From: Candidatus Altimarinota bacterium
GTDB taxonomy: Bacteria > Patescibacteriota > Gracilibacteria > UBA1369
DNA: 64,000 bases
Direction: 5' to 3'
Assembly: GCA_963677745.1 (NCBI GenBank)
Contig: OY782391.1
Location: forward strand, 928,001-992,000
Below are positions 44,697 through 64,000 of the stretch, one piece after another. The notes below the pieces were generated by a model. It was not told the DNA's origin. It was given only the letters and a program-made list of their open reading frames with translations, and ran no database searches. Each line of letters begins with the position of its first letter. Position 1 is the first letter of the stretch. The position numbers and the translations under genes were made by a program.

Positions 44697-45611
44697 ATGG
44701 CCAAGCGGAACGATTTTCATCAGTCAGCTTTGTCTCATCAGTTGAGCGAAGACGCCCTGACCGATCAACAACTTTTGGAAAAATTTAAATATTATGGAGC
44801 GCGGGCCATGAATGCGCGCAACAAATGCATCGGGCTATTGCCGGAGATCCACCGGCGTGAATTGTTTCGCCGGCATGGATATGAATCAATTTACGAATTT
44901 GCCTCCAAACTGGCAGGCCTCAGCCACGAACAGGTCAACAGGGTGATCAATTTGGAGCAGCGGCTTCAGGATAAACCGGATCTGCACGCTGCTCTTGTTA
45001 AAGGCGAGATTGGTGTCAACAAACTGCGTAAAGTAATTAGCATTGTCACTTTGGAAAATCAGGCGGAGGTTGCGGAAACGGTGCGCACATTGTCAGTCAG
45101 GGCAGTGGAAACTCTGGTGAGAGATCAGAAAGTGGCAGCAGCTCTGGCAGATGCCCGGCCCGGTGACGGGGAAAAAATTAGAGATGGTCACGTGACCATG
45201 CAAAAGACCATGTTTTCCGAGGAGTTGCAATTAGATCCGGAGGTCCAAAAGCGGCTGTTAGATATGCAGAAAAAGGGCTTGGATATAAATAAATTGCTGA
45301 AAGAGTTTTTGCAAAAACATCAGGAGGTAATCGAAGCCGAGAAAAACAGGATCGCTGAAAACCTGCCCTCTACGGCTTCCAGCCATTATGTGCCAGCCAG
45401 AGTAAAAAATGTGCTTCTTCAGGAATTTGGTAAAAAATGCAGTGTACCAGAATGTTACCGGCCAGCTGAGACTCTACATCACACGCGGCGATTTGCCCTG
45501 GTAGCCAGTCATGATCCGCGTTTTATGGCGCCTTTATGTGTCGGGCATCATGAGCTGGCCCATCGGGTGGATGGAAAAGTGCAGCGACACAGAAAAATTA
45601 ACTTTACCTGA
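44697..45611 (+). CDS. HNH-type endonuclease-like protein with DUF222-like N-terminal region
   Basis: GYESIYEFA N-terminal motif; C-terminal CSVPEC...LHH...H...LCVGHH...H; ATG at 44697. Confidence 0.75.
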   Translation: MAKRNDFHQSALSHQLSEDALTDQQLLEKFKYYGARAMNARNKCIGLLPEIHRRELFRRHGYESIYEFASKLAGLSHEQVNRVINLEQRLQDKPDLHAALVKGEIGVNKLRKVISIVTLENQAEVAETVRTLSVRAVETLVRDQKVAAALADARPGDGEKIRDGHVTMQKTMFSEELQLDPEVQKRLLDMQKKGLDINKLLKEFLQKHQEVIEAEKNRIAENLPSTASSHYVPARVKNVLLQEFGKKCSVPECYRPAETLHHTRRFALVASHDPRFMAPLCVGHHELAHRVDGKVQRHRKINFT

Positions 45612-45638
45612 AAAGACGCTTACTTTTTCAAGAGATGG

Positions 45639-46793
45639 TCAAAGATGTTTCGCTTTTCCGTCTGCCACTTCAACAAAGTCTCCCGGGAGGAGTTTTTCCT
45701 GATTGATGACAGCGGAATCTTTGGTGGTGGCAATAAATGTCTGATAATTAACTACTCTTTCCAACAGAAAATGCTGTCTTTCATGATCAAGTTCGGAAAA
45801 CACATCATCCAGGAGCAATATCGGCTGCAGCCCGTCTTCGTTAAAGTAATCCATTTCAATCAGCTTCAGGGCCAGTAAAATTGTCCTGAATTCCCCGCGT
45901 GACGCATGGCGCAGAATCGGAATTCCTTCCAGGCTGATCTCCATATCGTCCCGGTGCGGACCTATCTGGGTGTGGCCGGAGGCAATGTCCCTCTGCCGGG
46001 ATTTCCATAATTCCTCGCTAAAGATTTCTTCCAGATTGCCGGTAACGGACAGCATGGGAAAATCCAGTCCCAAACTGTTCAGATAGCGGATATTCAGCCG
46101 GCATTTTTTCTTGCTTATTTCTGCGTATTTCCCATTCAATTTTTCATCGATGAAGGCCAGCGCCGCCGCTCTTTCCTTCCAGACCAGCGCGCCCTCCCGT
46201 ACCAATTGCTCATCCCAAATGTCCAAATCTTCTTCGCCGGCCCGGCGTTCCTGAATGGCTGTCAGAAGAGCGTTCCGCTGCTCGCGGATTTTGCGGAATT
46301 TGCGCAATGCGGCAAAATAGGGCCGGCTTTTTTGGATTATCAGAATATCCAGGTAACGGCGGCGCAGGTCGGGGCCCAGATAAAGCACATTGAGGTCTTC
46401 CGGATGAAAAAACACCACCCTGATCTGTCCCACAAAGCTGGTGGCCGGGGTTTTGACACCGTTGACCTTGAACAGGCGGCGCGGATGAGGCGCTTTACCC
46501 AGAAAAATTTCCAGTTCCTGCGCGCCGCCGGCCATGCCGCCGCTACCATCGCCGCCTTGCCCGTTACTGAAATTACCCTTGATCCTGCCGAATTCCTCCT
46601 GCCAGAGGATCAGGTTTTCCTCGTCGGCCTGCCGGAACGACTTGGCTAAAGCCAGCATATAGACGGCCTCCAGTATATTGGTTTTGCCCTGGCCGTTGTC
46701 GCCGATCAGGTAAGTAAGCCCGGCCGGCTTGTCAAAAGCCAGCTTTTGAGAGCGGTAATTGCGGAAATTTTCCAGTGTCAGTGACTTGAGCAT
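45639..46793 (-). CDS. recF: DNA replication/repair protein RecF
   Basis: NFRNY, GDNGQGKTN, GPHRDD, SRGE, LLLDDVFSELD; start corrected to 46793. Confidence 0.96.
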   Translation of the reverse strand: MLKSLTLENFRNYRSQKLAFDKPAGLTYLIGDNGQGKTNILEAVYMLALAKSFRQADEENLILWQEEFGRIKGNFSNGQGGDGSGGMAGGAQELEIFLGKAPHPRRLFKVNGVKTPATSFVGQIRVVFFHPEDLNVLYLGPDLRRRYLDILIIQKSRPYFAALRKFRKIREQRNALLTAIQERRAGEEDLDIWDEQLVREGALVWKERAAALAFIDEKLNGKYAEISKKKCRLNIRYLNSLGLDFPMLSVTGNLEEIFSEELWKSRQRDIASGHTQIGPHRDDMEISLEGIPILRHASRGEFRTILLALKLIEMDYFNEDGLQPILLLDDVFSELDHERQHFLLERVVNYQTFIATTKDSAVINQEKLLPGDFVEVADGKAKHL

Positions 46794-46951
46794 AACCGGC
46801 AACAAATTATAGCCAGAGCATACCTCAAACCGGGTACGGCCAGCAACACCCCATCCGGTTGTTAAAATCCCCCAAAAATGGTACAATGAAAGGATTCCAA
46901 AGCATGTCAAACCGGCATTCTGAATCCGTGTCCCCACTCCCTAAACTTATT

Positions 46952-47791
46952 ATGAGCAGCCACAATATCACCTATATCGCCTTGGCAGGCCTTCTGGCTC
47001 TGGTACCAGCCCTTTTCTGGGGGGTGATCTTTTATAAGAAACAGCCGGAAAATAAAGTTACTACATTGCGGTTGTTCGTCGGCGGTGCGATTTCGGTAGC
47101 CCCGTTGTTGCTCTACAAGTATCTCTGGCAGTATTTCCCCTGGATTAATGCCTTCCTCTATACCAATACTTTCCAGGACGACATGATCGGCTTTGCCAAC
47201 CTCAAGTTGTTGCCCTTGGATGTGCTTTTTACCTTTATGATTGTCGGAGTGATTGAAGAGATTGCCAAATTAAGCGCTGTCAGAATGACCGACCACAAAA
47301 AAATCGACTCGATTACTGACTGCATCGAATATTTTATAATCGTAGCTCTGGGGTTCGCCTTTGCGGAAAATATCATCTATTTCTACAACATTATCCAGGT
47401 GCGCGGCATGGACAGCGTTTTCCTGCCCTTTATCTTCCGGTCCCTTTTTTCCACTTTTGCCCATGTCATGTTTTCGGGAATTTTCGGCTATTATTACGGC
47501 CTGGCCAAATTTGCCGGACCGGTACTGGAAGAAAGTTACAATCGCGACAAATGGCCGGTGTTACGCTATCTGGTGGCCTTGTTGCATTTGCGCCGCACCA
47601 AAACCTTTCATGATCAGAAAATCTTTCAGGGGCTGCTAATCGCCGTGGTATTGCATGCCTTTTTCAATATATTTTTGGAAATGAACTGGACCTTTTTAAT
47701 TGTCCCGTTCCTGACTGTCGGCTTCATTCTACTCTCCTATATGTTCGATAACCGCCGCATGGAAAAACATTATCAGGAGATAGAAGAATAA
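46952..47791 (+). CDS. PrsW-family intramembrane metalloprotease
   Basis: EEIAK, GFAFAEN, AHVMFSG, LHAFFN. Confidence 0.9.
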   Translation: MSSHNITYIALAGLLALVPALFWGVIFYKKQPENKVTTLRLFVGGAISVAPLLLYKYLWQYFPWINAFLYTNTFQDDMIGFANLKLLPLDVLFTFMIVGVIEEIAKLSAVRMTDHKKIDSITDCIEYFIIVALGFAFAENIIYFYNIIQVRGMDSVFLPFIFRSLFSTFAHVMFSGIFGYYYGLAKFAGPVLEESYNRDKWPVLRYLVALLHLRRTKTFHDQKIFQGLLIAVVLHAFFNIFLEMNWTFLIVPFLTVGFILLSYMFDNRRMEKHYQEIEE

Positions 47792-47806
47792 GTTTCCCCC
47801 AAATTA

Positions 47807-47835
47807 TTGATATTAATTCAGTTGAGTGGTATTCT
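47807..47835 (+). promoter_or_regulatory. sigma70-like promoter of uvrA
   Basis: TTGATA-17 nt-TATTCT. Confidence 0.5.
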
Positions 47836-47943
47836 AATTGCCGCTTAAGTTTCAGTAAAAGATCAATCCGATTGCAGCCCGGCGCTGAAGAAAGCGCTTG
47901 TTAACATTAATATTCGTATTTACGGTAATTCATCCATCTGTCC

Positions 47944-50844
47944 ATGCAAAACGATAAAATAATTATCAGGGGGGCCAAAATCCACAATCTCAAGAACATC
48001 AACGTGGAAATCCCCAAAAACAAACTTACTGTCATTACCGGTCTTTCCGGTTCCGGTAAGTCCTCCCTGGCCTTCGATACCATTTATGCCGAAGGCCAGC
48101 GCCGCTATGTGGAAAGTCTCTCCACTTATGCCCGCCAGTTCTTACAGCTGATGGAAAAACCGGATGTGGAATCCATTGAAGGATTGAGCCCGGCCATTTC
48201 CATCGATCAAAAATCCGCTCCCCGCAACCCCCGCTCCACGGTGGGTACGGTTACTGAAATTTATGATTATCTGCGCCTGATGTTCGCCAAAGTCGGTACT
48301 CCTTATGATCCTGTTACCGGTGAGCCGCTGACCCGTCAGTCCGCCTCCGAAATCGTAGAAATAATTTCCCAGATGCCGGAAGGAAAAAAGATTATTCTGC
48401 TCGCACCGGTTATCAATCAGAAAAAAGGTTCGCATCTGAAGGTTTTTGAGAAAATCAAAAAGGACGGTTTTGTGCGCGTGCGGGTGGACGGAGAGGTTAT
48501 GACCGTGGTGGACGTACCCGAATTGGCAGAGAACAAAAAGCACAATATAGAAATAGTGGTTGACCGTCTGGTGGTCAAAAATTTCCGCAAACTCTATAAG
48601 ACCATGTCCAACGGCGATCAGCTGGAAATCTCCAATCCCGACCGCAGCCGCCTGGCGGATTCCGTCGAGCTCTGTTTGAAACAGGGTAACGGCCAGATGA
48701 TGGTCGTCGATCATGACAGCAAAGAAGAACAGATCTTTTCCGAACAATATGCCTCGGCCGATTCCGGCATCAACATCCCGGAAATCACCCCCAGCCTCTT
48801 TTCCTTTAATTCTCCTCAGGGAGCCTGCGAATACTGCCACGGCCTCGGCACGCGCCTGGAGATCAACCCGAAACTGGTTATCCCCAATCCCAATCTGACA
48901 CTGGCCGAAGGCGCCATCATGCCCTGGTCGGCCACCACCAGCCATCTGACCTGGTATAACCGCATTTTGGAAACCGTGGCCGACCAGCTGGGTTTTTCCA
49001 TGTCCACGCCTATCAAAAAACTTACGCCGGAACAGTTGAATACCATCCTTTATGGCACCGGTGAACGTAAATATAAGATCCGGGTTGGTCAGCAAAAAAA
49101 CACCGAAGAAGGAGCCGGTTTCAACGGAGAATATCAGACCCGTTTTGAAGGAGTTATCCCCAATCTGGAACGGCGCTATCATGAAACCGATTCCGATTAT
49201 ATCCGCCGCAAGATCGAAAAATACATGCAGGTGTTGATCTGTCCCAAATGCCAGGGAAACCGTCTTAAAAGCGAAGTTCTGGCTATTAAAATTGACGGGA
49301 AATCAATCATCGAGGTCACCCGTTTATCCGTGAAGCAGTCGGTACATTATTTCCAAAACCTGACACTCACTAAATATCAGCAGGAGATAGCCCGGCCTAT
49401 CATTAAAGAAATATTAAACCGGTTGCAGTTTCTGGAGAATGTCGGACTGAATTACCTGACTCTGGACCGTTCCGCCAATACCCTGTCCGGAGGGGAAGCT
49501 CAGCGCATCCGTCTGGCCACCCAAATCGGTTCCAAGCTCTCGGGAGTGATTTACGTGCTGGACGAACCTTCCATCGGCCTGCATCAAAATGATAACGCCA
49601 AACTGATCAATACGCTGATATCTCTGCGTGACCTGGGCAACACGGTGGTGGTGGTGGAACATGATACCGATACCATGCTGTCCTCCGACCACATTTTGGA
49701 TATTGGCCCCGGTGCCGGGAAAAACGGCGGTTATGTGGTGGCGGAGGGGACTCCTGATGAAATTATGAAAAATCCCGCTTCACTTACCGGAAAATATCTC
49801 AGTGGTCTGGAGAAAATTGCCATTCCTAAATTCCGCCGTCCGGGCAACGGCAGCTGGCTGAAAATAATCGGGGCCACCCACCATAATCTGAAAAATATCA
49901 CTGTGGAGCTGCCTCTGGGCACTTTTATTGCCATTACCGGCGTGTCGGGTTCGGGCAAATCCACCCTGATCAACGACATTCTGGTCAAGGAATTATCCAA
50001 GACCATTTACGGTTCCAGAACCAGCTCCGGCGCCCATGAGGCCATTACCGGCCTGGAATATCTGGACAAAATTATCAATATTGACCAGTCTCCGATTGGC
50101 CGTACGCCGCGCTCCAATCCCGCTACATATACCGGTGTCTTTACCGACATCCGCGATATGTTCGCGGCCAGTCCCGAAGCTAAATTGCGCGGCTATAAGT
50201 CGGGCCGCTTCAGTTTCAATGTCAAGGGCGGTCGCTGTGAAGCCTGCCAGGGCGACGGTATCAAGAAAATAGAAATGCATTTCCTGCCCGATATTTATGT
50301 TCAATGTGAAGTATGTAACGGCAAGCGTTATAACGCCGAGACTCTGGAAGTGACCTATAGGGGCAAGAGTATCGCCGATGTTCTGGCTATGTCGGTGGAA
50401 GAGGCAATGGAGTTCTTTGATGCCATTCCCAATATTAAAACCAAGCTGGAAACTCTTCATCTGGTCGGTCTTTCTTATATTAAACTTGGCCAGCAGGCCA
50501 CAACACTCTCCGGAGGCGAGGCTCAGCGTATCAAGTTATCCACCGAGCTGTCCCGCAAATCCACCGGACAAACTTTTTACGTTCTGGACGAACCGACCAC
50601 CGGTTTGCATTTTGCCGATGTTAAAAAACTGCTGGAAGTACTGCAGAAATTGGTGGAGAAGGGGAATACCGTTCTCTGCATCGAACATAATCTGGATGTT
50701 ATCAAATCCGTGGATCACGTCATTGATCTTGGGCCCGAGGGGGGAGATATGGGCGGAAAAGTTATTGCCACAGGCACGCCGGAGGAAGTCAGCCGGGTCA
50801 AAGAGTCATATACGGCGATTTGGCTGGAAAAAGTATTAAAATGA
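47944..50844 (+). CDS. uvrA: Excinuclease ABC subunit A
   Basis: Two ABC ATPase modules ([24 protein letters not shown] twice) and zinc fingers. Confidence 0.98.
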
Positions 50845-50934
50845 TTTTCAATTAGACTTTCCAGGGGATGATTTAATCTGGCCCATCTTATTGACGATGG
50901 GTGGATTTGTTGTACCACCTATTAAAGGTGCTTT

Positions 50935-51200
50935 AAAAGAATTGTGTAAAGTTTAATAAAATTGGGTAAAATATGGTAGAGTGTGGACTGTGGGTAGCGT
51001 CGAAAACAGTCAAAAAGGCTTCAAAGGGGGCAAATAATGTTAAAAAACTGTGCAAAAGTTGTAGAAAAACTGTGTAAAGTTTAATAAAGTTAGCTGAAAG
51101 TCGAAAAATCTATTGAAAACAGATAAGTCTTATGTAAAATACAGTACAGATAAATAAACATGGCTGTATAGATTGATGAACGTTAAAAATACTGCTAAAA
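50935..51200. other. Candidate replication origin (DnaA-box-like array, AT-rich)
   Basis: Co-oriented matches to TTWTNCACA on the minus strand: 51049 (perfect) and 50943, 50963, 51038, 51060, 51071 (one mismatch each). Confidence 0.55.
50943..51088. repeat. 18-bp direct repeat TGTGTAAAGTTTAATAAA
   Basis: Identical copies at 50943-50960 and 51071-51088. Confidence 0.85.
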
Positions 51201-51229
51201 TTTAGTTAATAGGTAAAACAATTAACTAA

Positions 51230-51628
51230 ATGCAGGAAAGAATACTTACTCCAGAGCAAGTTGCCCAAATTTTGCAGGTACATCCGTACACGGTGCTAAA
51301 ATTTATAAAACAGGGCAAACTACAGGCTAGCAAACTAGGGCGTGTCTACAGAATCCGGGAAAGCGCATTGGAAAGCTTCCTTGATCAAACTTCGGGAAAA
51401 GCTGCCAAAGTGGAGGAAAGTACAACAAATGATTATAAGAAAAGCAAAAACAAAAACAAATTTCCCCAAAATATATTGGTTGAGCCTGCCGTAACCGTTG
51501 ATCCGTCCAAGGATAACAAAAACAAAGTAAAATCACCTGAAATTACCATAAGTAGGGTAGAGACGATTGAACCTTCGGACGGAGCGGAAAAAAGTGGCGG
51601 CGAAGACGAATACTACATACTTCAATAA
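51230..51628 (+). CDS. Excisionase-like (HTH_17) DNA-binding protein with disordered tail
   Basis: LTPEQVAQILQVHPYTVLKFIKQGKLQASKLGRVYRI. Confidence 0.88.
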   Translation: MQERILTPEQVAQILQVHPYTVLKFIKQGKLQASKLGRVYRIRESALESFLDQTSGKAAKVEESTTNDYKKSKNKNKFPQNILVEPAVTVDPSKDNKNKVKSPEITISRVETIEPSDGAEKSGGEDEYYILQ

Positions 51629-51865: not shown

Positions 51866-51890
51866 AAAAGCCCCCGCGCAGCGGGGGCTT
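51866..51890 (-). terminator. Rho-independent terminator (possibly bidirectional)
   Basis: AAGCCCCCGC-GCA-GCGGGGGCTT between convergent operons. Confidence 0.75.
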
Positions 51891-51958: not shown

Positions 51959-53155
51959 TTATTTGGCGGCCGGCGCAGGTTTATTGCTGCATTGCTTGCC
52001 GAGAATATTGGCTGTGCATTTTTCCACTCTGGTCAGCGGAGTAAAGGTATCTTTGATAATTGTCTGGAGATCGTCCAGATTGGATTTTAGTTTATCCAGT
52101 CCCAAGCCCTGCACCTGGCGATATTTCAGATCATAGTTTGTTACATATTCCAGATCCAGTTCGCTGGTTCTGTCCCGGTCCTGAATCGTGTTCATATCCG
52201 CCGAGACCGATTGAAAGGTAATTGCCGGAAGTGCCGCTTTGCCCTCGCCATAAGAAAATGGAGCGTTTTCTTTGGCGGTATTGCTGATGCTTTCCCAGAC
52301 AGTTGCTTCCTGTGCGGGCTCCGCATTGACTCTGAGGTCGACCACTCTGTTGAAAAAATCTCCCAGTCCTTTTGAGCTGAAAACGGTGGCCAGTCCCGGA
52401 TTTTCCTTGACTCTCGTTTTCATTGCACTCCATCGTTTACTGGCTTTTTCGGCAAATCTTTTACCAAGGTTGTTGATGGTATCAATTGTGCTGCCGAAAT
52501 TATTGATTCTGTCCATCAGCTGTTCCAGGTTTGGATCGGTGCAGTTTCTGTAGCTTTCGATTTTACTTTCATATTTCTGAAAAAGTTTTTCAAACACCGT
52601 AGCAGCCTGTTGTTGGTCGAAATAGGCCATTTTATTGACAAACAAGTCCATGAATTTGGCTCTGACGTCATTTTTCCTTGCTACCTTCTGTTTCTTTTCC
52701 TCTTCTCCGTTTTTGGGATTGGCCGAAGGTGCGGTGTCGACAAAATGCCGCAAATAGTAAAGTTCAGCCGATAATTCATAATACTGAGCGGAGACCGTGG
52801 TGGTGGTCTTGTTGTCACAGACATAGAAAGCCTGACGGATCTGTTTACGCGCCTTGTCGATCCGGTTGAGCAGACTGTCGATGTCCATAAAACGGCAATA
52901 ATTTGTACTGTAACGGCTGTACCCGACGCCGGGAATGTCCAAAATGTCAGTCCAGTAATCCAGGAACCCTTCGCCATCAAAATCCAAACCGTTGGTCAGG
53001 AAATTGCTGAAATCCCGTTTGCAGAATAGCTGGGTCCCGCTGCCTGCATTATTTTCCAATCCCTGCGCTCTGACCGGATCGGCGGAAGGTACCAGCATCG
53101 CCAGTGTCAGCATCAGCGTAAAGAGGGTTTCTAATTTTATGGTGATTTTATTCAT
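51959..53155 (-). CDS. Exported helical hypothetical protein (398 aa, 6 Cys)
   Basis: Signal-peptide-like N-terminus; ends ...EKCTANILGKQCS... Confidence 0.85.
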   Translation of the reverse strand: MNKITIKLETLFTLMLTLAMLVPSADPVRAQGLENNAGSGTQLFCKRDFSNFLTNGLDFDGEGFLDYWTDILDIPGVGYSRYSTNYCRFMDIDSLLNRIDKARKQIRQAFYVCDNKTTTTVSAQYYELSAELYYLRHFVDTAPSANPKNGEEEKKQKVARKNDVRAKFMDLFVNKMAYFDQQQAATVFEKLFQKYESKIESYRNCTDPNLEQLMDRINNFGSTIDTINNLGKRFAEKASKRWSAMKTRVKENPGLATVFSSKGLGDFFNRVVDLRVNAEPAQEATVWESISNTAKENAPFSYGEGKAALPAITFQSVSADMNTIQDRDRTSELDLEYVTNYDLKYRQVQGLGLDKLKSNLDDLQTIIKDTFTPLTRVEKCTANILGKQCSNKPAPAAK

Positions 53156-54999
53156 CAGGTGCAGGCTTTTTTAGTATCAAGTTTTTCACAGGCCTTGGAA
53201 GAAACCAGTCCTGGAACGTCTTCGATCAGGGTTCTAATCTGTTTCTGGAAATTTTCAAAGAAATCATTCATGGCTTTCATTTCATCTTCCAGTGCTTTCA
53301 TGGAGTCCACTTCCGCGTAGGCATCCTTGGCAATCTCCGCCACCAGCATTTCCTGTGTTTCCGCGGACTGTTCGGCGGTCAGCGCCTGGCTGGTTTTATT
53401 CATGATCTCAGCCTGGGTGGCGCCATCCGGAGCGTTATTGATAACCACTTCCAGCATTCTTTGGGCCGTAGACATGATCGGAGTTTTGTTTCCCTTATTT
53501 GTCCCTTCTTTGGCCTCCAGCTGACGGCGTTTGATTTCACTGTAATTCCAGAGGCCGTTGACCTGTGCATATTTGTCCCATTCATCTGCAATATTGCCCA
53601 TATTGATCATTTCTTCTTTGGTCGGCGTGATCATCGGCACGATTGAGATGCTCACATTCATTCCCACCGATCTCAGGGCGTCGGCAGCGGAATTTTTACA
53701 GAGGGCGCTCTCCCCGAGATTACCTGTAGCCTTAGCCGGAATCAAACTGTGACCAATGGTTTTCTGTAATCCTTCATTGATGAACTGAACATGGCACTGA
53801 ATACAATTGTCAGTTTTCTGGAAGGATGCTGTAGCGGGCTTTTTGACAAAATCCAGGGAGATGCAGACGATATCGTCACACAGGGGAGGGGCGGAATAAT
53901 CACCCGGCGTGGCCGGAGTGAGAGGGGGCGCGGCCGGCGTCGAATCGACGGGGATATTTACATCCCCGGTACCGTTTCCCGAGCCCGTGCCGCCAGCACC
54001 GGCCGCGCCCGATCCAGTCCCCGATCCGGTCTGGCCGCTTCCCGCCTGACCGGAGGATTTTTCCACAAAAGTACTTTGCAGTTTGGGATTGGTGGCGGAG
54101 TCCTGCGAAAATTTTTCCAGGGCCTGATCTATATTCTGATTGGCAAAACACTGATTGGGATTGATTCCCCCGGCGAACAAATTGCTTTTATCTTCAATTT
54201 CGGCTGCAAAAGGATTGGGAGCGGGCTTGGCAGTGCCGGCTCCGCCGGCACCTGATCCGCCTGCGCCGGGCGTTTGTCCGGATGAACTTCCACCTCCCGC
54301 CGGGCCGCTGGTATCTACGGGAATATTGGTTTCCCCGGATGCTGGGGGGTTTTCTCCTCCCGCAGGCGTATCTTCCTCGGCATTGTATTGCCCGCCAAAA
54401 GTGACCAGATCATTTTTTTGAAAAAGAATTACCTCGATATTGTCCAGGTCTTTGATCAGATCAAAACCGCCTGAATTATCAGGATCGCCGTCGGCAAACA
54501 TCTCCGCCGGTTCAATTTTGGCGTTAATGGTAGCCTGTACGTCCTGGGTGTTCTTCTTGTCGTTATAGGTGGCAATCATGCCGTTATAAATATTCACGGC
54601 ATCGTCTATCCTCATCATCGGCGATTTTTCCAGAATCGGGGTGATATCTCCCCCCAGAATCAGCGACATTCTTTCGGGAGGAATACCGTACTGGGCGGCA
54701 GTTTGCTTGATGGCTTCACCCATTGGATTGGTCTGGGTCTTATTGTAAATCATCAGATATAAATTCTGTCCGACCTCATCCGGTGTGGTCGCTCCAAAGC
54801 TTTTACCCCAATCCAGGCCTTTATTGCCCTTCTCCCTCAAAGCATATTCCAGCCTGTCCGTCACCATACAGGCGGGATCTTTCAGCACATTGCAGGACTG
54901 GTCCTGCGGGGACTCTTCATCCGCCGCCAGGCCCAGCCAGGGGTGCAGGGGGGCACTCAGGAACATCAGTAAGCCAATTGTATAAAGCATTTTTTTCAT
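53155..54999 (-). CDS. Exported hypothetical protein (614 aa, 10 Cys, two Gly-rich linkers)
   Basis: MKKMLYTIGLLMFL signal; ends KACEKLDTKKACT. Confidence 0.85.
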   Translation of the reverse strand: MKKMLYTIGLLMFLSAPLHPWLGLAADEESPQDQSCNVLKDPACMVTDRLEYALREKGNKGLDWGKSFGATTPDEVGQNLYLMIYNKTQTNPMGEAIKQTAAQYGIPPERMSLILGGDITPILEKSPMMRIDDAVNIYNGMIATYNDKKNTQDVQATINAKIEPAEMFADGDPDNSGGFDLIKDLDNIEVILFQKNDLVTFGGQYNAEEDTPAGGENPPASGETNIPVDTSGPAGGGSSSGQTPGAGGSGAGGAGTAKPAPNPFAAEIEDKSNLFAGGINPNQCFANQNIDQALEKFSQDSATNPKLQSTFVEKSSGQAGSGQTGSGTGSGAAGAGGTGSGNGTGDVNIPVDSTPAAPPLTPATPGDYSAPPLCDDIVCISLDFVKKPATASFQKTDNCIQCHVQFINEGLQKTIGHSLIPAKATGNLGESALCKNSAADALRSVGMNVSISIVPMITPTKEEMINMGNIADEWDKYAQVNGLWNYSEIKRRQLEAKEGTNKGNKTPIMSTAQRMLEVVINNAPDGATQAEIMNKTSQALTAEQSAETQEMLVAEIAKDAYAEVDSMKALEDEMKAMNDFFENFQKQIRTLIEDVPGLVSSKACEKLDTKKACT

Positions 55000-56042
55000 T
55001 AACTACATTTGGTTGTGGTGGCGTCAATAAACCGGATCGGGAAGGCATCGGTCTGTTTGCGGATTTCCACCAGGTGGTCACGGTATTTGACCAGTTCCGC
55101 AAAAGTATCCATGTACTTCACATGCATCTGCCAGGCTGAGCGCAGCTGACTGTAGGCGTCCAAAGTCTGGTCCAGAGCTGTTTTGGCGCGGGCAATTTCC
55201 TCATCGATAAATTTGATTCTGGCGGCCGTCGAATCAGCCGCATCGGTCAGAGTGAAAGTTGCGTTCGATAGAGCGCTCTTGCCAGCCGATTTCCACCATT
55301 GTATCTTGTTTATTTCATAATATAATTTGTTCTGCAGTTTGGTCTTTTTTTCCATGTCTTTCTCATCAATGACCTGTTTATTCAGCCGGCAGATGGTTTT
55401 ATCTTTCATCATGGCGGCCAACTTGGGATTGTTGCACTTATTCAGAATTGACTGGGGAGTGCTGTCATAGAGGGCGTCCCGCTTCAGATCCAGTGCCGCT
55501 TTGTAGCAGAAATAACTGTATCTCAGCTGGCTGATTCTCTTCACCCCCTCATAATCGTAATTGGCAAATTTGGTGGATGGCACTCCCAGCAGCGTTACCC
55601 CTATACAAAAGGGATGGGTAGCCGGGGAATCCGTTGTATTGACCGGATTGCAGACCGCGATGGAGCGGCAGGTCATATCATTGGTTTCTTTACCATTAGC
55701 GTTTTTGCAGAGTCCTCCGCCCCGCGTTGGATATTCTTCCAGACTGGGGGAGGGAACTTCCGCCACCAGATCCTGACCGCCTTCCGTGGCTGATTTCATG
55801 ATCTTCAGAATCTGTTCGTTGAAATAATCATTGGTTTTCTCGGTATACATATTGGCGAGGTCCGAAACGTCCATGTCATTGACCAGTCCGTCAAAACAGA
55901 ACTTCTCTACAAAACCCCGCGAATCCGTGGGAGGAGTTTGATCGTCATCGGCGCTTTTGCCCGTGGTCGCACCAACCACCATCAAGACAGCCATTGATGC
56001 CAGTAAAACCGTTGATGTGTAGAGAATTTTATTTTTCATCAA
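54999..56042 (-). CDS. Exported hypothetical protein (347 aa, 9 Cys)
   Basis: Signal-peptide-like N-terminus; helical C-terminus ending ATTTKCS. Confidence 0.85.
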   Translation of the reverse strand: MMKNKILYTSTVLLASMAVLMVVGATTGKSADDDQTPPTDSRGFVEKFCFDGLVNDMDVSDLANMYTEKTNDYFNEQILKIMKSATEGGQDLVAEVPSPSLEEYPTRGGGLCKNANGKETNDMTCRSIAVCNPVNTTDSPATHPFCIGVTLLGVPSTKFANYDYEGVKRISQLRYSYFCYKAALDLKRDALYDSTPQSILNKCNNPKLAAMMKDKTICRLNKQVIDEKDMEKKTKLQNKLYYEINKIQWWKSAGKSALSNATFTLTDAADSTAARIKFIDEEIARAKTALDQTLDAYSQLRSAWQMHVKYMDTFAELVKYRDHLVEIRKQTDAFPIRFIDATTTKCS

Positions 56043-56701
56043 ATGCAGGTCTTAAGATAACAGGGCATTTTTTCCTCAAAAGTGCGGATATTGATCACCA
56101 TTTTCATGATATCCAGATCCAGTGATCGCAGTTTGGAGTTGATCTGTTTATATTTCTCCACAAACACCGAGGTTTTTTTGATGCTGGAAGTGGTATAGGC
56201 ACGCATTTCCAGGAGTTTTGAGGCATTATCGATATATTCCGCGGCTTTGGCTTCGCACTCCGACAGGCCGGGGAACTGGGCGGCATTGGCGGCCCCCGAT
56301 TGGGCGGCCGCGGCCAGCTGGCTTCCCACCAGAATTTCCAGCTGGCCCCTGATATTCTTTTTGAGCAGTTCATAGCGCTCTATGCCCTTTTTCAGAAGCG
56401 AACTGGTGGCACTTTTATTTTTAAAATTGTCCTCCATGAAGGTTTGATAGCTCTCAAATTCGGGATCTGCATATTTGGTTAATTCATAAATACAGATCTG
56501 CGGTGTTATGGCGTTTTTGTTGGCAGCGGTTCCTTCCACCACAGTAATCGGGGTGTCGGAAGCGGGTGGGGTGGTCTCGTCGGCCTGACTGACATAACCT
56601 GTGCCAAGGGCATTGCCCAAAAACAGCAGCAACATCAGATTAATGGTAATTACTACCGGATGAAGCAATCTTTTACTGTTTGTATTGGTTTTATTTTTCA
56701 T
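56039..56701 (-). CDS. Exported helical hypothetical protein (220 aa, 4 Cys)
   Basis: Basic plus hydrophobic N-terminus; ends KMPCYLKTCI. Confidence 0.85.
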   Translation of the reverse strand: MKNKTNTNSKRLLHPVVITINLMLLLFLGNALGTGYVSQADETTPPASDTPITVVEGTAANKNAITPQICIYELTKYADPEFESYQTFMEDNFKNKSATSSLLKKGIERYELLKKNIRGQLEILVGSQLAAAAQSGAANAAQFPGLSECEAKAAEYIDNASKLLEMRAYTTSSIKKTSVFVEKYKQINSKLRSLDLDIMKMVINIRTFEEKMPCYLKTCI

Positions 56702-56747
56702 CTTCTTGTTATTCTAGCATATTTTGGCTTTTAATTCAGCCTTGGTA

Positions 56748-59700
56748 CTATTCGCCGTATTCTTTTATTTCCTTGATTTCCACCAGGTTGCTTTCGCTGA
56801 ATATCTCACTGTTATTGTCATTGGAAATTACTCCGATCAGTTTGTCTCCCACGATCAGGTCGGCGGTATGGTCGATGGCCGATGGGCAGGGGCAGCTGGC
56901 ACAGGGTTCGGGAATTACATACACTCCCTCACCCAGATCCTTTCGGGGATCGATCAGATCGTCGGCCGGATTAAGCGGGTCAGTGCCGCGTTTAACCTCC
57001 ATGCCGTCTTTGATACCTCCCCCGTCCGTATCGGGATTGAGAGGATCTGTCTTATAGATATCGGTTTCTTCCTGGTCTCCCAGGCCGTCTCCGTCCGTAT
57101 CGCGGTCATCCAGCCGGTTGAGCGGATTGGTTCCGTTTTTAAGAACTTCATCTCCGTCCTTTACGCCGCCTTTGTCGGTGTCGGCATCGTTGGGACTGGT
57201 TTTATATTTATTTATTTCATCCTGGTCGGAAAGGCCGTCGCCGTCAGCATCCAAATAGTCGTCTGAAGGATCGAGCGGATTAGTATGTCTGTCCAGAACT
57301 TCCACACCGTCCCAGATCCCGCCTTTATCTGTATCGGCCAGCCAGGGATCCGTACCGAATTTATATTCCTCCAGATTGACCAGCCGGTCTTTGTCCGGAT
57401 CATCGTCGGCATCGCTGGGATCAAGATAATCCAGATTATGTTGTTTCTCCCAGAAATCCGGCATGCCGTCGCCGTCGGTGTCAATCAGTGAACAGTCATA
57501 GGCCAGCAGGACCCTGTCGGCCAGTTTAATAAATTCGCCGCGATTCAGATCGGCTTCGGGATTCACGGCTTCCTCCGCCGTCAAAAGATAGTTGGATTTA
57601 AGAGTTTTACCGGGTTTGATGACGGTGGTCAGATTCTGGGCGATCTGCAGATAGGGGACATAATATGGTTCGGTCAGAGGGACTTTATCTAGGCTGATCA
57701 GTCCTTCCCGCTCCAATGCTTCCAGAATAATTTTCACGGCCTCGGCCTTGCTGATAGTGGCATCCGGGGCAAAGGGTGTCTTTCCTGAAACTTTATCGAT
57801 AAGTCCGCGGTAACCGGTAATGAATCCCTGGAAATAAGCTTCCTTGGTGGCGGCATAATACCAGGGCGGGGCCACACCTTCCTGATAAGGAATATCAGTA
57901 AAGACAGCTGGTCCGATTTTGGCTTCGGGGCGGGGCACTATACAGAAAGTATCCAGTATGACTTTGGCGAATTCCGAACGCAGAATCGGTTCGTCAAAAC
58001 CGAATTTGACCCGGTTGCCGGAAGGAATGCCTTTCAGTATTCCTCTCTGGAAGAAATTCAGGATGCTTTGATAATAAGGATTATTCTTATCCACATCGCT
58101 GAAAGGTGACGTAGCTGCTGCATTCGGATCAGTGCCGAAAACTTTTTCAAATGAATCGGGATATCCGTCGCCGTCACTGTCCGCCAGCAGCGGATTGGTG
58201 CCGGCCAGATATTCCTCCAGATTGGACAGTCCGTCCTGGTCGGAATCTTCGTCGGCATCCGCAGCATTGTCGATATTCAGGCCGTATTGCTGTTCCCACA
58301 GGTCGGGCATGCCGTCCTTGTCGGTATCGAAATCGGGGCCTTTATTGGATGACGCTCCCACAAACAACTGGAAGCTGGCTGGATCAAGAATAGTAATCGG
58401 CTTTTTATAACTGAAGGAAATGTAAAACTCGGCAATCACCGCGGTGGAATTATCGGGCTTTTGCAGAACCACCTGGAAAATCATCGGATCTTTCAGAGCG
58501 CTGGCGCTCTTCAGGGCCAGTTTGATGCGCGGATCATAAATGTAAAAATTTCCGCCGGAATCCAGAACGGCCACTCTTTTTAGCGAGGATTTTTCCAGTA
58601 TTTCCACCCCTCCGGCAAATTTTTCCGCGTCACCCGGGATTTTTTTGATCTCAAAATCAGAGCTGCCGCCAGTCGACGAACCAAGCAGATCCTTAATGTG
58701 TACTCCTTTGAACAGCAGTACGGATGGCCCCGTATAAACCACCTCCGGGCCGTCAACCACCACGTCGGTATTGGCATCAGATACCACAAACAGCGTGGCA
58801 ATGATTTTCCCCTGGGGATCTTTGACCACTACCCGAGTCGGCAGCAGGGGTTCTTCCGCCGGCAGTGCTTCCACCGAATAAAGAGGATTTTTCAAAATCA
58901 CCCGGCCCGTCTTTGGATCTATCTCCGCCACTACCTCGCCCTTTTCATTCTTTATGACTACCGTGTCATTTAAATTTAGATCGTTGACGGAGAACTTTCC
59001 TTCCGCATTGCTAAAGTATTTGCCGTTGGCATTGGCGGACAGGGTATGCAGAGCCTCCTTGACGCCTGCGCGATCCCTCAGCAGCGAGATTGGCATTTGG
59101 TCTTCGACCGGATCAAGCGAACCGCTGACAGTTTCTCCTTCCCCGTTTTGTTTGATCTGGAGAGTGGCGGATTGTTCGTCCAGGGAGATTTTTGGAACAT
59201 AAATTTCTATATCGATTTGCTGTTGGCCGGTATTATTGGACTGATCAACTACATTCAGCATCACCTGCCGGGGATTCAGATCTTTATAAGGTCCCAGTGT
59301 GAATACCGGATCATCCAAATCGTCATAGGCCAGACCGTTGCCGTCGCTGTCCACCCCGGGATTAATGTCATGTCCCAGGTTTCTGTCATTGGTCGGGTTG
59401 CCGTCGCCGTTGGAATCGTAAGTCAGGTCAGTATCGATGTAGTAACTCATTATTTTCCCGAAAGTGTCGAAAGATCTGCCGGTGTCGACGGTCAAAGTTT
59501 TGAAAATGGCGACTTTCCTCAGGCTCGGTCCGGCCACGGGTAAAGGCACCTGACGGTCCGAACAAATATTGGGTGACAGTGGAACCGCCGCCGTCTGCAG
59601 ACTGCGGAATCCAGTCCGGTCAAAAGACCTCACCACGGCATAATAAAAACCGTTGGGCAGGTTGAGCGTGATGGCGGGATTAGCAGGATCATCCAACACC

Positions 59701-62700
59701 CCGATCTGCATATTTTGTTCCGCATCAACCCTGGTATAGGCCTCCTGTGGCAATTTGATCAGGGCACTTCCGTCGCCCACCGATTCGTAGCGTGTATTCA
59801 GTTCGATCTTTGCACCCGGTAACAGTTTCTGATTTTCAACGGTGGAAGAGGGCGTGATGATGGTAACGGAACCGCTTTCCACCTTTATTTCCAGCTGCGC
59901 GCCAAAACTGTCGGGCAGTGAAATCAATTCACGGGCGGACATTTTCTTTTTAGCCATTTCCTGTCCGTCCGACCAGACCTGCAGCACGCTGTCCTGGGAA
60001 GCAAAAATCTGTTCTCCGGCCGAGAGCAAATATCTTTCGCTGCCCCCCGGCAGTATTTTTTGCTGCGGTCCGGTGAAGACTACTTCCCCGCTGACTTCGG
60101 CAGCCACCATTTCATAGAGTTGCGAGGCCGGGAATTCATAAGCATTTTCTTCGGCCTGCAGTACCGAATTGGTCAGCATTCCGCCGGTTGATTCCTGGGA
60201 ATTCAGATATACGTATTTGGACAAACCGGAGGCTTTCAGGTCATTGATAACGCCCTTATAGGCCACACCGCCCAGTTTCGGTCCGACAATCAGTTCATAG
60301 CCGGTGGAATCGGCGGCGGTGATGGCGCTCCAGGTCAAATCCAGAGTCTGGTTGCCGGTAAAGGTAGCCAGCAGTCCGCTGACCGATCTTTCCGCCGGAA
60401 CCAGTTCCTCCAGATCATAATACTTGGGCATCCCCCCATAGAATTTCCCGATTTTGCCGGTGGTTTTGTAATTTTCTTTCAGATAGACATTGCTGCCGAA
60501 AGAATAAACCAGATCTTTGTCTGTGTCCCCGTTCACATCCACAAAATTCATGGTGGAAGGCAGGGAAAGCTCATCTTCGTAACTGATCAGTTTTTCATTG
60601 ATTTGTTGGGCTTCATTATAGATAAACATCCCTTTGCTGACCGGTTTTGACTGCAGGGAAGCTGGCAGGCCGGAATTCGCCGTCAAATCGTCCATGCTCG
60701 GCACTTTGGCATAAGTCTTCTTTTCGGAAGCCATCATGGTGCCCTCCGCATAGCCCGATTTGACCAGCAGGTCGGAGATGCCGGGTAATTTGGCGGTCAA
60801 AGTGGCAAATTTGGACAGGTCATTGCTGGCCAGCAGTTGTTCATCAATTTTTTGATTTTCCCGGGCATAGGCAAACAGATTTTGACGGAGATTAGCCAGT
60901 TTTTTGGTTTCATCAAAGCCGTCTCCCAGTGCCAGCATCACTCCGTCATAATCAAAATTCTGTAAATTCTCCAGTGATTTATTGACCGAGCTGTCGGTCG
61001 GATTGATCACGGTTGCTCCGGCTACCAGTTTGATATCCTGAAAATCCCTGTCGATAATCTCACGGTAGCGGGCGGATTCCGCCTCCAGTTCCTTGCTGAC
61101 TGTCATCAGTCCGGCAATCGATTCGGCCAGCTGCGGCGAAAATGCGGCAAACTCACGGGCCAAAGACTGATCTGAGGAAAGCTGGGTTTGTAGATCGGCG
61201 GGCAGATAGTTCAGAAGGGCGTTGTTGCCGGCATTTCCCTCAGGCATATTGTTTTGCATGGTCGCATTGGCTGCGGCGGCCGACGCGGCCGCCGCATTTT
61301 CGATTCCCTTGGTAAGAGAGTTGGCTGTCTCGGAAAAGGTAGTCGAGACTTTATTCAGATTGTTGGCCACCAATTGAACCATGTCATAAATAGTGGTGAA
61401 TTGCAGTGCCTTGTTGAGGTTGATCTTCACGGTCAATACAATCCTGTCCACATAATCATAACTGATATTGGGAAGTTGGAAGGCCAGTCCCAAATCAAAT
61501 GGCAGAAGCGGATCCAGACCGCGTTCCGTCATGTGTTCGACGGTGGACTTCAAGACATTTTCATTGGTGGGAATAAATCCTTTTTTGATCAGACACAATA
61601 TTTTGAAAATCTTTTTCAGTATGCTGATGGTCGCCTTGATCGCGCCCGGAAGTGCCGGAATCTTGGGTGGAGGGGGCAGATTGGGCAAAGCCGGGATGAT
61701 CAGCGGCGGCAAATCGGGAAGTTCCGGCAGACTGAAGGACAGATCGGGCAAGACCGGGATCTCCGGCAGGGTAATCTGGAAAGTTGGTAATTCCGGCAGC
61801 ACGATTCTGGGAAGTTTGGGCAGAACCAGTTTTTCCGGTCTGAATTTAATATCCGGGAAGAGTATGGTAATACCCATTTGCACCTGTGAAAAATCCAGAT
61901 AAATATCGGGAAGTTTGGGAAAGGGGATAATGGGCGGGCTGGGAATAAAAGCAAATAGTTTTAAAATCAGCTCCAGCAGGGTGAAACGGGCCGAACTGCA
62001 CTTATCGCAGGAAGTCTGGTAATCGATAATCAAATCGAACATCATCTTCCAGGTGGCAATTGTTTCTACCAGCTTGGCCACGGCATCTACCCAGCCATAA
62101 GCCTGGTCCAGCCACTTGGCAATATTTCCCACGAAAAACTGTACTATGGCATCGATATAACAAATCACCTGAGAAACATATTTGGTCAGCATATTTCTCC
62201 AGGCCAGCAGTTGTCTGGGTAATTTCTTATACCCCTCAAGCACTTCGATATTTTTTTCCACCGACTGAATCAGCTTGGTCATGTCGGCGGTAAAGATGTC
62301 GCACACCTTGGCGTAAGGACGGTCACCGTAGACTATCACAGTCTTGCCTTCCGCGTCGGTGGTTTCATAACCGGGGACTTTTCCTCCTCCGCCGTTCGGA
62401 TCATCCACCATCTCCTTGAAAGGTCCGCATTTCCACACGGCCAGGGCTCTTTCCAGCTCATATTTTTCATCCTGCACCCATTGCTTGGCATCATTGATGA
62501 AACGTTCTATTTCTCCGGGAGTAAGCGAAGGTATCTTGATAATTACTTCCTGAGGCACTATGGAAAGAAGCGGGAATTGATTGATTTTATTGAGTACCCC
62601 CCTCAGTCCGCTTGGATTTACCGGTTCGTCTTTGACTCTCAGATTTCCCTCTTTCAGATCGCTGATAACCTTGCCGGCATCCTGGAATGGCGCCCAGACC

Positions 62701-64000
62701 TTGGGAAAAAGTATATAGATATCAGGAAGATCGGTCAGTTTGTTGATGATTTCCGAGCTCTGGTTGTCCAGCCAGTCTGTCAATACCGACGGGAATCCGG
62801 GCATACGGATATTGGATTTGGCGTTCACCTTAAAGCCGTAATTGCCCAAGCTGGAAGAGGCTTCAAAACCGCCTGTATAATTTTTCCCATCGGCCGTCGG
62901 CGTATCGGCCAGGCTGCCGTCGGAAACATTACCAATGGTTCCGGAAACGTCGGAAACAATACTGTTGGCCGCTCCCAGGGCCCCTTGCATAGCTTTGTTG
63001 ATAGCCTTGCATAATTCTGCAAAAGGATCGATCGGCAATACAATTGTGAAACAGTTGCCCGGCACAGGGCCAAATCCCACCAGATAAGTCCCGAAACAAT
63101 TGGCCATGGCAATTTTTCCGGTCAGAGTTGGCGACAGATAAAGACGGTACTGGGAAGCTTGAAAAGGCGACGGAGGCCAGATGGGGACAGGGCTGGGTAT
63201 GCCTGCGGCAAAAATCGGGAAGCCGGGATCGAAACCCGAGGGGATTCCCATTACGTTGATTGCACCCGGAGCCAGAAAAGCAAAATTGATCGGTAAAGGT
63301 ATGCAGCCGCCGGTACAGGTCAGAGCCGCCAAAGCGCCCTCCAGTTTATCCGCCGCCTGATCCAAAGCCGCTCCTGCACCGTCATAGAAGGCACCCACAC
63401 CCGGTATACCCGAGACGCTGTCTCCTTCGGTAGAACCGCCGCCTCCTCCGCCACCTCCGCCGGTGTCACCCATGGTTATTCCCGGGAAGGTCCCGTAATC
63501 CATCAAGTATTTAACGGCAATCGGCATCCCGTCCGGACCTTTTTGTTCGAACAAACTCAAATCTATTCCCACCGGTTTGCCGGTTTCGGGATTTGTCGGT
63601 TGTTGATAGCCGGTAGTTGCGCTGGCATTGGGATCAGGGGTGACGTAAGTCCCATAGGTCATTTGCCCCGTGCCGTTGTTTTTGCTGATTGAATAATAAT
63701 AAACCATTCTGCCGGTTGGATTGCCGTCAGGTGAAGCTGCAATGTCGGGATAACCGTCCTGCACCGGATAGGAGCTGGTCAGATTTTGACCGACCGCGAT
63801 TTTCACTTTTGGTAATTGCTTTACGGTTACCCTGTAAGTGATGGTCCGGGTTGAATTGGCAGGCAGATCGATACCGGTCGCCTCATCACTCCCCGTAATC
63901 AGATAGGGACGCAGACTCATCCCGGAGTCAATCAGTCTGATTGGCTTTTTACAGTCGGAACATTTGATGGAATCCTTATTCAGTTCCACGTTTTCCGGGA
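56748..64000 (-). CDS. Giant surface protein (>2413 aa, 5' end outside the window) with SLH domains and Ca-binding DxDxDG repeats
   Basis: Frame open to the window edge. SLH motifs FSDV..ILRSEFAK and FTDI..ISKAEAVK; many D(S/T)DxDG..D..E...GT(N/D)P repeats; PKD-like and Fn3-like segments; Cys/Pro-rich N-region. Confidence 0.92.
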   Translation of the reverse strand, partial: PENVELNKDSIKCSDCKKPIRLIDSGMSLRPYLITGSDEATGIDLPANSTRTITYRVTVKQLPKVKIAVGQNLTSSYPVQDGYPDIAASPDGNPTGRMVYYYSISKNNGTGQMTYGTYVTPDPNASATTGYQQPTNPETGKPVGIDLSLFEQKGPDGMPIAVKYLMDYGTFPGITMGDTGGGGGGGGGSTEGDSVSGIPGVGAFYDGAGAALDQAADKLEGALAALTCTGGCIPLPINFAFLAPGAINVMGIPSGFDPGFPIFAAGIPSPVPIWPPSPFQASQYRLYLSPTLTGKIAMANCFGTYLVGFGPVPGNCFTIVLPIDPFAELCKAINKAMQGALGAANSIVSDVSGTIGNVSDGSLADTPTADGKNYTGGFEASSSLGNYGFKVNAKSNIRMPGFPSVLTDWLDNQSSEIINKLTDLPDIYILFPKVWAPFQDAGKVISDLKEGNLRVKDEPVNPSGLRGVLNKINQFPLLSIVPQEVIIKIPSLTPGEIERFINDAKQWVQDEKYELERALAVWKCGPFKEMVDDPNGGGGKVPGYETTDAEGKTVIVYGDRPYAKVCDIFTADMTKLIQSVEKNIEVLEGYKKLPRQLLAWRNMLTKYVSQVICYIDAIVQFFVGNIAKWLDQAYGWVDAVAKLVETIATWKMMFDLIIDYQTSCDKCSSARFTLLELILKLFAFIPSPPIIPFPKLPDIYLDFSQVQMGITILFPDIKFRPEKLVLPKLPRIVLPELPTFQITLPEIPVLPDLSFSLPELPDLPPLIIPALPNLPPPPKIPALPGAIKATISILKKIFKILCLIKKGFIPTNENVLKSTVEHMTERGLDPLLPFDLGLAFQLPNISYDYVDRIVLTVKINLNKALQFTTIYDMVQLVANNLNKVSTTFSETANSLTKGIENAAAASAAAANATMQNNMPEGNAGNNALLNYLPADLQTQLSSDQSLAREFAAFSPQLAESIAGLMTVSKELEAESARYREIIDRDFQDIKLVAGATVINPTDSSVNKSLENLQNFDYDGVMLALGDGFDETKKLANLRQNLFAYARENQKIDEQLLASNDLSKFATLTAKLPGISDLLVKSGYAEGTMMASEKKTYAKVPSMDDLTANSGLPASLQSKPVSKGMFIYNEAQQINEKLISYEDELSLPSTMNFVDVNGDTDKDLVYSFGSNVYLKENYKTTGKIGKFYGGMPKYYDLEELVPAERSVSGLLATFTGNQTLDLTWSAITAADSTGYELIVGPKLGGVAYKGVINDLKASGLSKYVYLNSQESTGGMLTNSVLQAEENAYEFPASQLYEMVAAEVSGEVVFTGPQQKILPGGSERYLLSAGEQIFASQDSVLQVWSDGQEMAKKKMSARELISLPDSFGAQLEIKVESGSVTIITPSSTVENQKLLPGAKIELNTRYESVGDGSALIKLPQEAYTRVDAEQNMQIGVLDDPANPAITLNLPNGFYYAVVRSFDRTGFRSLQTAAVPLSPNICSDRQVPLPVAGPSLRKVAIFKTLTVDTGRSFDTFGKIMSYYIDTDLTYDSNGDGNPTNDRNLGHDINPGVDSDGNGLAYDDLDDPVFTLGPYKDLNPRQVMLNVVDQSNNTGQQQIDIEIYVPKISLDEQSATLQIKQNGEGETVSGSLDPVEDQMPISLLRDRAGVKEALHTLSANANGKYFSNAEGKFSVNDLNLNDTVVIKNEKGEVVAEIDPKTGRVILKNPLYSVEALPAEEPLLPTRVVVKDPQGKIIATLFVVSDANTDVVVDGPEVVYTGPSVLLFKGVHIKDLLGSSTGGSSDFEIKKIPGDAEKFAGGVEILEKSSLKRVAVLDSGGNFYIYDPRIKLALKSASALKDPMIFQVVLQKPDNSTAVIAEFYISFSYKKPITILDPASFQLFVGASSNKGPDFDTDKDGMPDLWEQQYGLNIDNAADADEDSDQDGLSNLEEYLAGTNPLLADSDGDGYPDSFEKVFGTDPNAAATSPFSDVDKNNPYYQSILNFFQRGILKGIPSGNRVKFGFDEPILRSEFAKVILDTFCIVPRPEAKIGPAVFTDIPYQEGVAPPWYYAATKEAYFQGFITGYRGLIDKVSGKTPFAPDATISKAEAVKIILEALEREGLISLDKVPLTEPYYVPYLQIAQNLTTVIKPGKTLKSNYLLTAEEAVNPEADLNRGEFIKLADRVLLAYDCSLIDTDGDGMPDFWEKQHNLDYLDPSDADDDPDKDRLVNLEEYKFGTDPWLADTDKGGIWDGVEVLDRHTNPLDPSDDYLDADGDGLSDQDEINKYKTSPNDADTDKGGVKDGDEVLKNGTNPLNRLDDRDTDGDGLGDQEETDIYKTDPLNPDTDGGGIKDGMEVKRGTDPLNPADDLIDPRKDLGEGVYVIPEPCASCPCPSAIDHTADLIVGDKLIGVISNDNNSEIFSESNLVEIKEIKEYGE

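Follow-up and report, generated by a model that had tools for sequence, protein, structure and literature searches.

The coiled-coil ends of laminin carry inter-chain disulfides. A comparable arrangement is described for fibrinogen, in which disulfide rings bound the three-chain coiled coils (PMC5713436). Among Candidate Phyla Radiation (CPR) bacteria, the nearest described counterparts of the system treated here are giant surface proteins: the passages available report large extracellular proteins, partly rich in cysteine, in Peribacteria (PMC4736985), giant membrane proteins in Vampirococcus (PMC8080830), and an enrichment of Peregrinibacteria in proteins of more than 5000 amino acids (aa) without assigned function (PMC11573180). 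These passages on CPR giants make no mention of four partner genes, of their conservation or of their cysteines, and the supplementary tables, which may list such genes as hypothetical, lay outside the search; the excerpt of a metaproteogenomic paper on Gracilibacteria (PMC11452946) held no relevant passage. The present analysis concerns a 64,000-nt stretch, referred to as the window (G000:C1:928001-992000), of the single-contig genome (1,335,835 bases, 97.9% complete) of an uncultured, ultra-small Candidatus Altimarinota bacterium, whose relatives carry the names Candidatus Peribacteria, Peregrinibacteria UBA1369, and Patescibacteria. The window encodes the C-terminal part of a giant surface protein and, directly downstream of it, four small proteins, here named A, B, C, and D. 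On balance, the five genes probably encode one extracellular assembly of fibre- or stalk-like form, in which A, C, and D are linked in a disulfide ring, B is joined to them, and the whole is held by the giant.

The initial annotation had described the giant gene followed by four genes overlapping by 4, 1, and 1 nt, and the open reading frames (ORFs) are as it stated. These overlaps apply to the TTG start of B; the database entry for B begins at an ATG one codon later, with which the three junctions read TGATG, TAATG, and TGATG, each a 1-nt overlap. The giant is separated from A by 46 nt, and each of A, B, C, and D occurs as a single copy in the source genome. This five-gene arrangement is more than chance, since it is conserved across the order and beyond. 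The giant followed by all four families was found in 36 of 37 same-order loci, the remaining locus (G037) being fragmented, so that the synteny check proposed at the outset came out in favour of a conserved module. Among the first 20 of these loci, 18 show the giant and then four ORFs of the right sizes, and all four families were recovered in each of 17 further loci. One locus (G025) holds all four families with a run of N between C and D; an apparent C-D fusion there (1069 aa, L026:16284-19493) was rejected as an artefact bridging the run of unknown bases.

The signal-like N-termini, the long amphipathic helices, and the C-terminal cysteines ascribed to the four proteins could all be recovered. 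An N-terminal hydrophobic segment exceeds the Kyte-Doolittle threshold in A, B, and D, and a shorter one was seen by eye in C; signal cleavage sites (small-x-small, then acidic residues) were also read by eye. In the 63-72 residues ahead of each tail, hydrophobicity recurs with a periodicity of 3.45-3.55, a power reached by only 0-5 of 500 shuffles, and the AlphaFold2 (AF2) models of C and D contain terminal helices. The C-terminal strings are present as described, namely PCYLKTCI in A, TTKCS in B, and KACEKLDTKKACT and KCTANILGKQCS in the other two.

It is these tails that carry the evidence for a covalent link between the chains. Each of the six tail cysteines in A, C, and D was scored as present or absent in 36 same-order genomes, and the states were placed on a B+C+D tree from which the tail columns had been removed. 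All six cysteines are present in 16 genomes; A214 and C613 are missing in 8, C604 and D380 in 6, all four of these in 5, and all six in 1. Of the 15 possible pairs of tail cysteines, only A214-C613, C604-D380, and A219-D389 share their state in 36/36 genomes. The other 12 pairs do so in 22-25 of the 36, the within-protein pairs A214-A219, C604-C613, and D380-D389 being at 23, 22, and 25, respectively. On the tree, A214-C613 and C604-D380 each changed twice and A219-D389 once, with all independent pairs running in the same direction. The three matched pairs are all inter-protein (A-C, C-D, and D-A) and close a ring, a model that leaves no tail cysteine unpaired in any of the five patterns; the tails of the 37th genome (G025), read by eye, also fit. 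The internal cysteines of the same three proteins are even in number: two in A, eight in C, and four in D. Taken together, the co-variation of cysteines between proteins supports a disulfide-linked hetero-oligomer of A, C, and D, the disulfides themselves being what we infer from it.

The initial annotation had included all four proteins in such an oligomer, and the support obtained for it is narrower in reach: the co-variation covers A, C, and D, while the terminal cysteine of B is invariant, C346 showing no change on the tree. The mature B chain contains 3, 5, 9, or 11 cysteines, an odd number in 36/36 genomes (19/19 plus 17/17), so that additional cysteines occur two at a time, with one remaining. 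The source genome encodes one VKOR and two DsbA-like (Thioredoxin_4) proteins, and a search of it for DsbB found none; with the VKOR and the two DsbA-like proteins, the genome can oxidise exported cysteines.

Based on these observations, the following assembly is proposed. Briefly, A, B, C, and D would be exported by Sec, and in each an amphipathic helix of the above length, heptad-like in its periodicity, would lead into a short cysteine tail at the end of the chain. The A, C, and D helices would assemble, most simply as a three-stranded coiled coil, the end of which would be locked by the inter-chain disulfides A-C214/C-C613, C-C604/D-C380, and A-C219/D-C389, such that every chain of the ring is bonded to the other two. 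The bonds would be formed by the VKOR/DsbA-like system of the genome. B would join the set with its penultimate cysteine free for a further partner, either a second B or the giant. As A-D have no wall or membrane anchor of their own beyond the signal, the SLH-anchored giant, whose gene always precedes theirs, is probably what keeps them at the surface; display by the giant is thus plausible from the conserved adjacency, the anchor-less A-D, and the SLH domains of the giant. Giant and A-D together may build a surface structure resembling a fibre or stalk that serves contact with other cells; host attachment or penetration, as put forward in the initial annotation, is a plausible role by analogy with the lifestyle of related bacteria.

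The likeness drawn here to fibrinogen is one of working and not of membership. In both cases, three distinct chains with heptad helices and two close cysteines each would be mutually bonded at the end of a rod. The differences are that A-D have no sequence relationship and the C and D models no fold relationship to fibrinogen, that the organism is bacterial, that A has its cysteines in Cx4C spacing and C and D have theirs in Cx8C, and that a single A-C-D ring is predicted, from co-variation and not from a structure.

Several points weigh against the proposed assembly. The co-variation rests on approximately five events in total, and a sign test cannot reach significance with the one or two independent pairs available for each cysteine pair. 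The tail states were scored by coding rules specific to this analysis, and the tree was derived from the same proteins by a quick search without a mixture model, with weak support for some deep branches. Tails are different in the sister orders, where the same ring does not accommodate all of them: for example, in G350 and L092, A carries two tail cysteines, C one, and D two, and the cysteine of B lies elsewhere. The AF2 structure models cover C and D only; in the D model C380 and C389 lie within the helix, and the C model contains disordered Gly/Ser linkers and a Cys-rich middle at low confidence. Finally, gene order is the sole direct tie of A-D to the giant.

Judged by their sequences, A-D are apparently new protein families. 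The check for a known system returned no match for any of them in Pfam or NCBIfam at E up to 0.1, and their family profiles found nothing under E 0.039 among Protein Data Bank (PDB) sequences; an ESM Atlas search with B gave nothing usable. BLASTP revealed no similarity among the four (best E 0.13), so they are not obvious paralogues. Their database homologues are all labelled hypothetical, one as "uncharacterized membrane protein", and none has a Pfam domain. The D model (57-row alignment, predicted local distance difference test (pLDDT) 72.7) is all-helical with a terminal helix at residues 314-389, and the C model (71 rows, pLDDT 65.7) has a confident helical N-domain at residues 80-195 and a helix at 529-592. 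Foldseek yielded no match for either model at E up to 0.001, and a wide VIA fold search with D reached Z 7 at best, to generic coiled coils and four-helix bundles. For the four families with their predicted ring, no bacterial counterpart was found. Residues 399-403 of C (window positions 53791-53805) form a CxxC followed by His (CIQCH) with the look of a heme c site, in the Cys-rich middle that AF2 models at low confidence; at least 90% of 71 sequences retain the two cysteines, and a heme-binding CxxCH was rejected as the His is missing in 3/19 sequences.

Conservation of the module differs between its members. D was detected in 36 of 41 order relatives, the window genome counted; C is present in four of the five genomes that lack a D match, in two of these at the end of a contig. 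Across 301 genomes sampled from the phylum, D was found only in the window genome and five same-order genomes, apart from one marginal match (E 3.8e-4), and in 0/11 same-class genomes of other orders; as a single protein query against genome contigs, D retrieved no relative. C is present in 120 of 201 genomes of the class, to which Peregrinibacteria, Gracilibacteria, and Absconditabacteria belong, and, at E up to 1e-5, in 0/284 genomes outside it, and its family comprises 582 clusters in a library of 1.84 billion proteins. Sister-order genomes were sampled around C matches and read with translation table 11, and a giant, or a giant in pieces, followed by four small ORFs was seen in 5/5 of them (G350, G236, G398, G339, and G374); hidden Markov models (HMMs) built from the order confirmed A in three, B in five, C in five, and D in two of these. 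Two TGA-recoded genomes were also inspected, and the module is rearranged in them: G396 shows a giant and then four ORFs with the C homologue last, and in G363 the C homologue does not adjoin a giant within the stretch examined.

The giant itself is the largest ORF of the 1.34-Mb genome. It starts 10.3 kb past the window end, its gene running to G000:C1:1002285. The SLH assignment of the initial annotation was confirmed by Pfam with two domains, one within the window (Table 1) and a stronger one in the N-terminal half (E 1.9e-9, 37.8 bits). Together with an N-terminal export-type hydrophobic segment (residues 32-53), they mark the giant as a predicted SLH-anchored cell-surface protein. Further Pfam matches beyond the window are Big_1/Invasin_D3, an Ig-like GH2_C5 domain, and FG-GAP_3, and NCBIfam gives a CglD-like match at residues 2177-2347 of the window fragment. 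Its SLH, TSP3, Ig-like, and FG-GAP modules make the giant similar to the SLH- or wall-anchored adhesins of other CPR bacteria, from which it differs by a conserved core block without a family. This core is covered in 19/19 same-order giants and aligns in 6/6 sister-order giants compared, in G396 only over residues 3905-4177. Its cysteines 3657, 3661, 3730, 3745, 3759, 4093, and 4096 are kept in 19/19 giants, and it has no Pfam match and no usable match in an ESM Atlas search (best 0.78).

The sister-order giants are collinear orthologues of the window giant, with residues 104-395, 646-890, approximately 2700-3550, 3648-4178, 4870-5305, and the SLH/TSP3 part as common blocks. Residues 104-395 (L003:17102-17977, outside the window) are the best conserved across sister orders, with 30-37% identity in 6/6, and have no Pfam match. 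In total the giant holds 36 cysteines, 16 of which are kept in 19/19 orthologues; cysteine parity was considered as a clue to the partner of B and was not informative. The CxxCxC motif near the C-terminus of the giant is, speculatively, a candidate partner of the free cysteine of B.

The first alternative to the proposed assembly is that A-D act as extracellular helpers in the folding, export, or wall passage of the 5845-aa, Cys-bearing giant, in which case disulfides between them may still exist. Their strict adjacency to the giant and their coupling with it, in the order as in sister orders, would suit such a function, as would the conserved CxxC of C and the lack of an adhesion-type domain in the modelled C and D. 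It is nevertheless unlikely, because Pfam and NCBIfam matches to a thioredoxin, chaperone, or peptidase family are missing from A-D, the His after the CxxC is not constant, and nothing else hints at catalysis. In addition, helices that are long, heptad-like, and stapled together at one end have the look of a structural element, and the translational coupling suggests fixed proportions within A-D and not with the giant, which lies outside the overlaps.

A second alternative arises from the genes upstream of the giant, which lie outside the window. They include a gene for a type IV pilin of 180 aa (N_methyl, E 1.9e-7), which is part of a pilus-like set at L041:671-10871 (G000:C1:1002670-1012870) consisting of two unknown genes, a T2SSE ATPase, a T2SSF platform, and the pilin, and adjoining rplJ-rplL; the other four genes of the set lie upstream of the pilin gene on its own strand. 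Two plus-strand genes between platform and pilin (L041:1415-3857) encode proteins of 443 aa, without a family, and of 348 aa, with two SLH domains, and both are also present in a genome of the same genus (G002). The order rplJ-rplL, two unknown genes, T2SSE, T2SSF, pilin with a GFTLIEL motif, and giant recurs in 12/12 same-order loci, the window genome counted; in four of them, other genes are inserted between the two last-named. The pilin and giant genes are separated by a hairpin of 12 pairs with a T-rich tail (L003:18627-18654, minus strand); with a terminator this strong after it, the pilin gene is probably transcribed separately. Elsewhere the source genome has another set of pilus genes, separate from this one, and it encodes one prepilin peptidase.

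Tips of type IV pili are built from minor pilins and a large adhesin such as PilY1, and the locus resembles them in having a large adhesin-like giant with propeller-type repeats and small partners beside pilus genes in this order. Giant and A-D could accordingly be imagined as an accessory to a type IV pilus-like machine, making up a complex at the tip or the base of the filament that the neighbouring ATPase, platform, and pilin produce, and the second pilus set would leave the neighbouring one free to be dedicated to this task. The fixed gene order notwithstanding, this has a slightly smaller chance of being correct than a helper function. Neither Pfam nor a motif scan found a prepilin N-methylation motif in A-D or the giant, the scan flagging only the upstream pilin genes, so the signals of A-D are ordinary ones; the pilin gene is set apart from the giant by the terminator and, in 4/12 loci, by other genes. 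Moreover, a pilin-like ORF ahead of the giant was seen in 0/3 sister-order genomes (G350, G236, and G398, with 12-17 kb read upstream), which makes the pilus neighbourhood a feature of the order and not of the module.

The remaining alternatives fare worse. That the tail cysteines form a shared metal site or another thiol-based link, with the subunits still meeting at their C-termini, is improbable: paired cysteine loss by itself shows joint function only, and each chain has two close cysteines (CxnC) as metal sites often have, but the proteins are exported by a bacterium that encodes a VKOR/DsbA-type oxidation system, and states with only two or four tail cysteines persist in 19 genomes, which independent two-cysteine bonds fit better than a single multi-ligand site.

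The analogy made in the initial annotation with multi-component toxins fared least well. At least one component of the Hbl, Nhe, and ClyA toxins has a membrane-entering hydrophobic hairpin or tongue. A secreted alpha-helical pore-forming toxin of this kind would share with A-D the presence of several exported, mostly helical proteins in one operon and would suit related bacteria that are predators or parasites of other cells in the accounts available, but it is very improbable, given that A-D match no toxin family at E up to 0.1, that no mature chain has a hydrophobic stretch or hairpin (maximal 19-residue Kyte-Doolittle means of 0.94 in A, 0.86 in B, 1.13 in C, and 0.61 in D), that the listed fold matches of C and D include no ClyA-type structure, that the genes, present once per genome and almost universally, hold a fixed place next to the giant over the whole class in a housekeeping-like distribution unlike typical toxin loci, and that covalent linkage of the subunits, if real, is unlike separately released components. 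The only toxin row, alpha-xenorhabdolysin A, is a chance-level one in the giant (E 0.047, 13 bits vs. a cut-off of 125). A parallel drawn with VirB5-type tip proteins likewise found no footing, as A-D have no such family match, the C and D fold matches contain no such fold, and the nearby genes are of the pilus/type II kind (T2SSE, T2SSF, and pilin) and not of the conjugation kind.

The features of the locus are collected in Table 1. The single terminator assigned to the four genes stands in part: the hairpin is real, and it lies between two convergent genes, D and a small HTH_17 protein gene, with a clear T-run on the plus strand, the sole strand called by the scan, and four T on the operon strand. 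Beyond it, the other flank (window positions 42494-51628) is ordinary and encodes a threonyl-tRNA synthetase, a RecF/SMC-like ATPase, a PrsW-family protease, UvrA, and the HTH_17 protein.

Table 1. Features of the giant gene and genes A-D, with positions in the window
Feature	Position	Strand	Basis or remark
Giant gene, C-terminal 2416 aa of 5845	56748-63998, open at window end	-	ORF call
Giant: conserved core block, residues 3648-4178, Cys-/Gly-/Pro-rich, without family	61752-63344	-	BLASTP
Giant: SLH domain, cell-wall anchoring module	57966-58106	-	Pfam SLH, E 2.4e-4, 21.4 bits vs. cut-off 20.8
Giant: TSP3 repeats (bacterial thrombospondin type 3, calcium-binding), near C-terminus	56958-57470	-	Pfam TSP3_bac, E 2.5e-30, 6 stretches
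Giant: CxxCxC motif (C5795, C5798, C5800), near C-terminus	56886-56903	-	all three Cys in 19/19 orthologues
Gene A, 220 aa, exported helical protein (predicted)	56039-56701	-	ORF call, hydrophobicity
A cysteines: internal C70, C149; tail C214, C219	tail 56045-56062		
Gene B, 347 aa from TTG or 346 aa from ATG, exported (predicted)	54999-56042	-	ORF call
B cysteines: internal C131, C146; tail C346	tail 55005-55007		penultimate residue in 19/19 rows; end FIDATTTKCS
Gene C, 614 aa	53155-54999	-	ORF call
C cysteines: internal eight; tail C604, C613	tail 53161-53190		
Gene D, 398 aa, exported helical bundle (predicted)	51959-53155	-	ORF call, AF2 model
D cysteines: internal C45, C87, C113, C205; tail C380, C389	tail 51989-52018		
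G+C-rich hairpin, 10 pairs (8 G-C), likely shared terminator	51868-51890	.	hairpin scan

The module of giant and A-D takes up approximately 22 kb, or 1.7% of the 1.34-Mb genome, and is kept in nearly every relative examined. As the genome is tiny and the module is nevertheless retained, it is likely central to life on other cells, and how these bacteria manage that life is the chief question about their large, uncultured group. A wider and more doubtful proposal is that a wall-anchored giant of approximately 5000 aa, carrying a rod of four new families, constitutes a previously unknown surface organelle throughout this class of ultra-small, host-dependent bacteria, three of the families being locked by a fibrinogen-like ring of inter-chain disulfides. 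If true, bacteria would have evolved, independently, their own version of an animal matrix-protein design, serving to grip or open a host cell. The predicted ring offers a concrete and cheaply testable prediction, and it gives cryo-tomography and metaproteome studies something by which to locate the structure.

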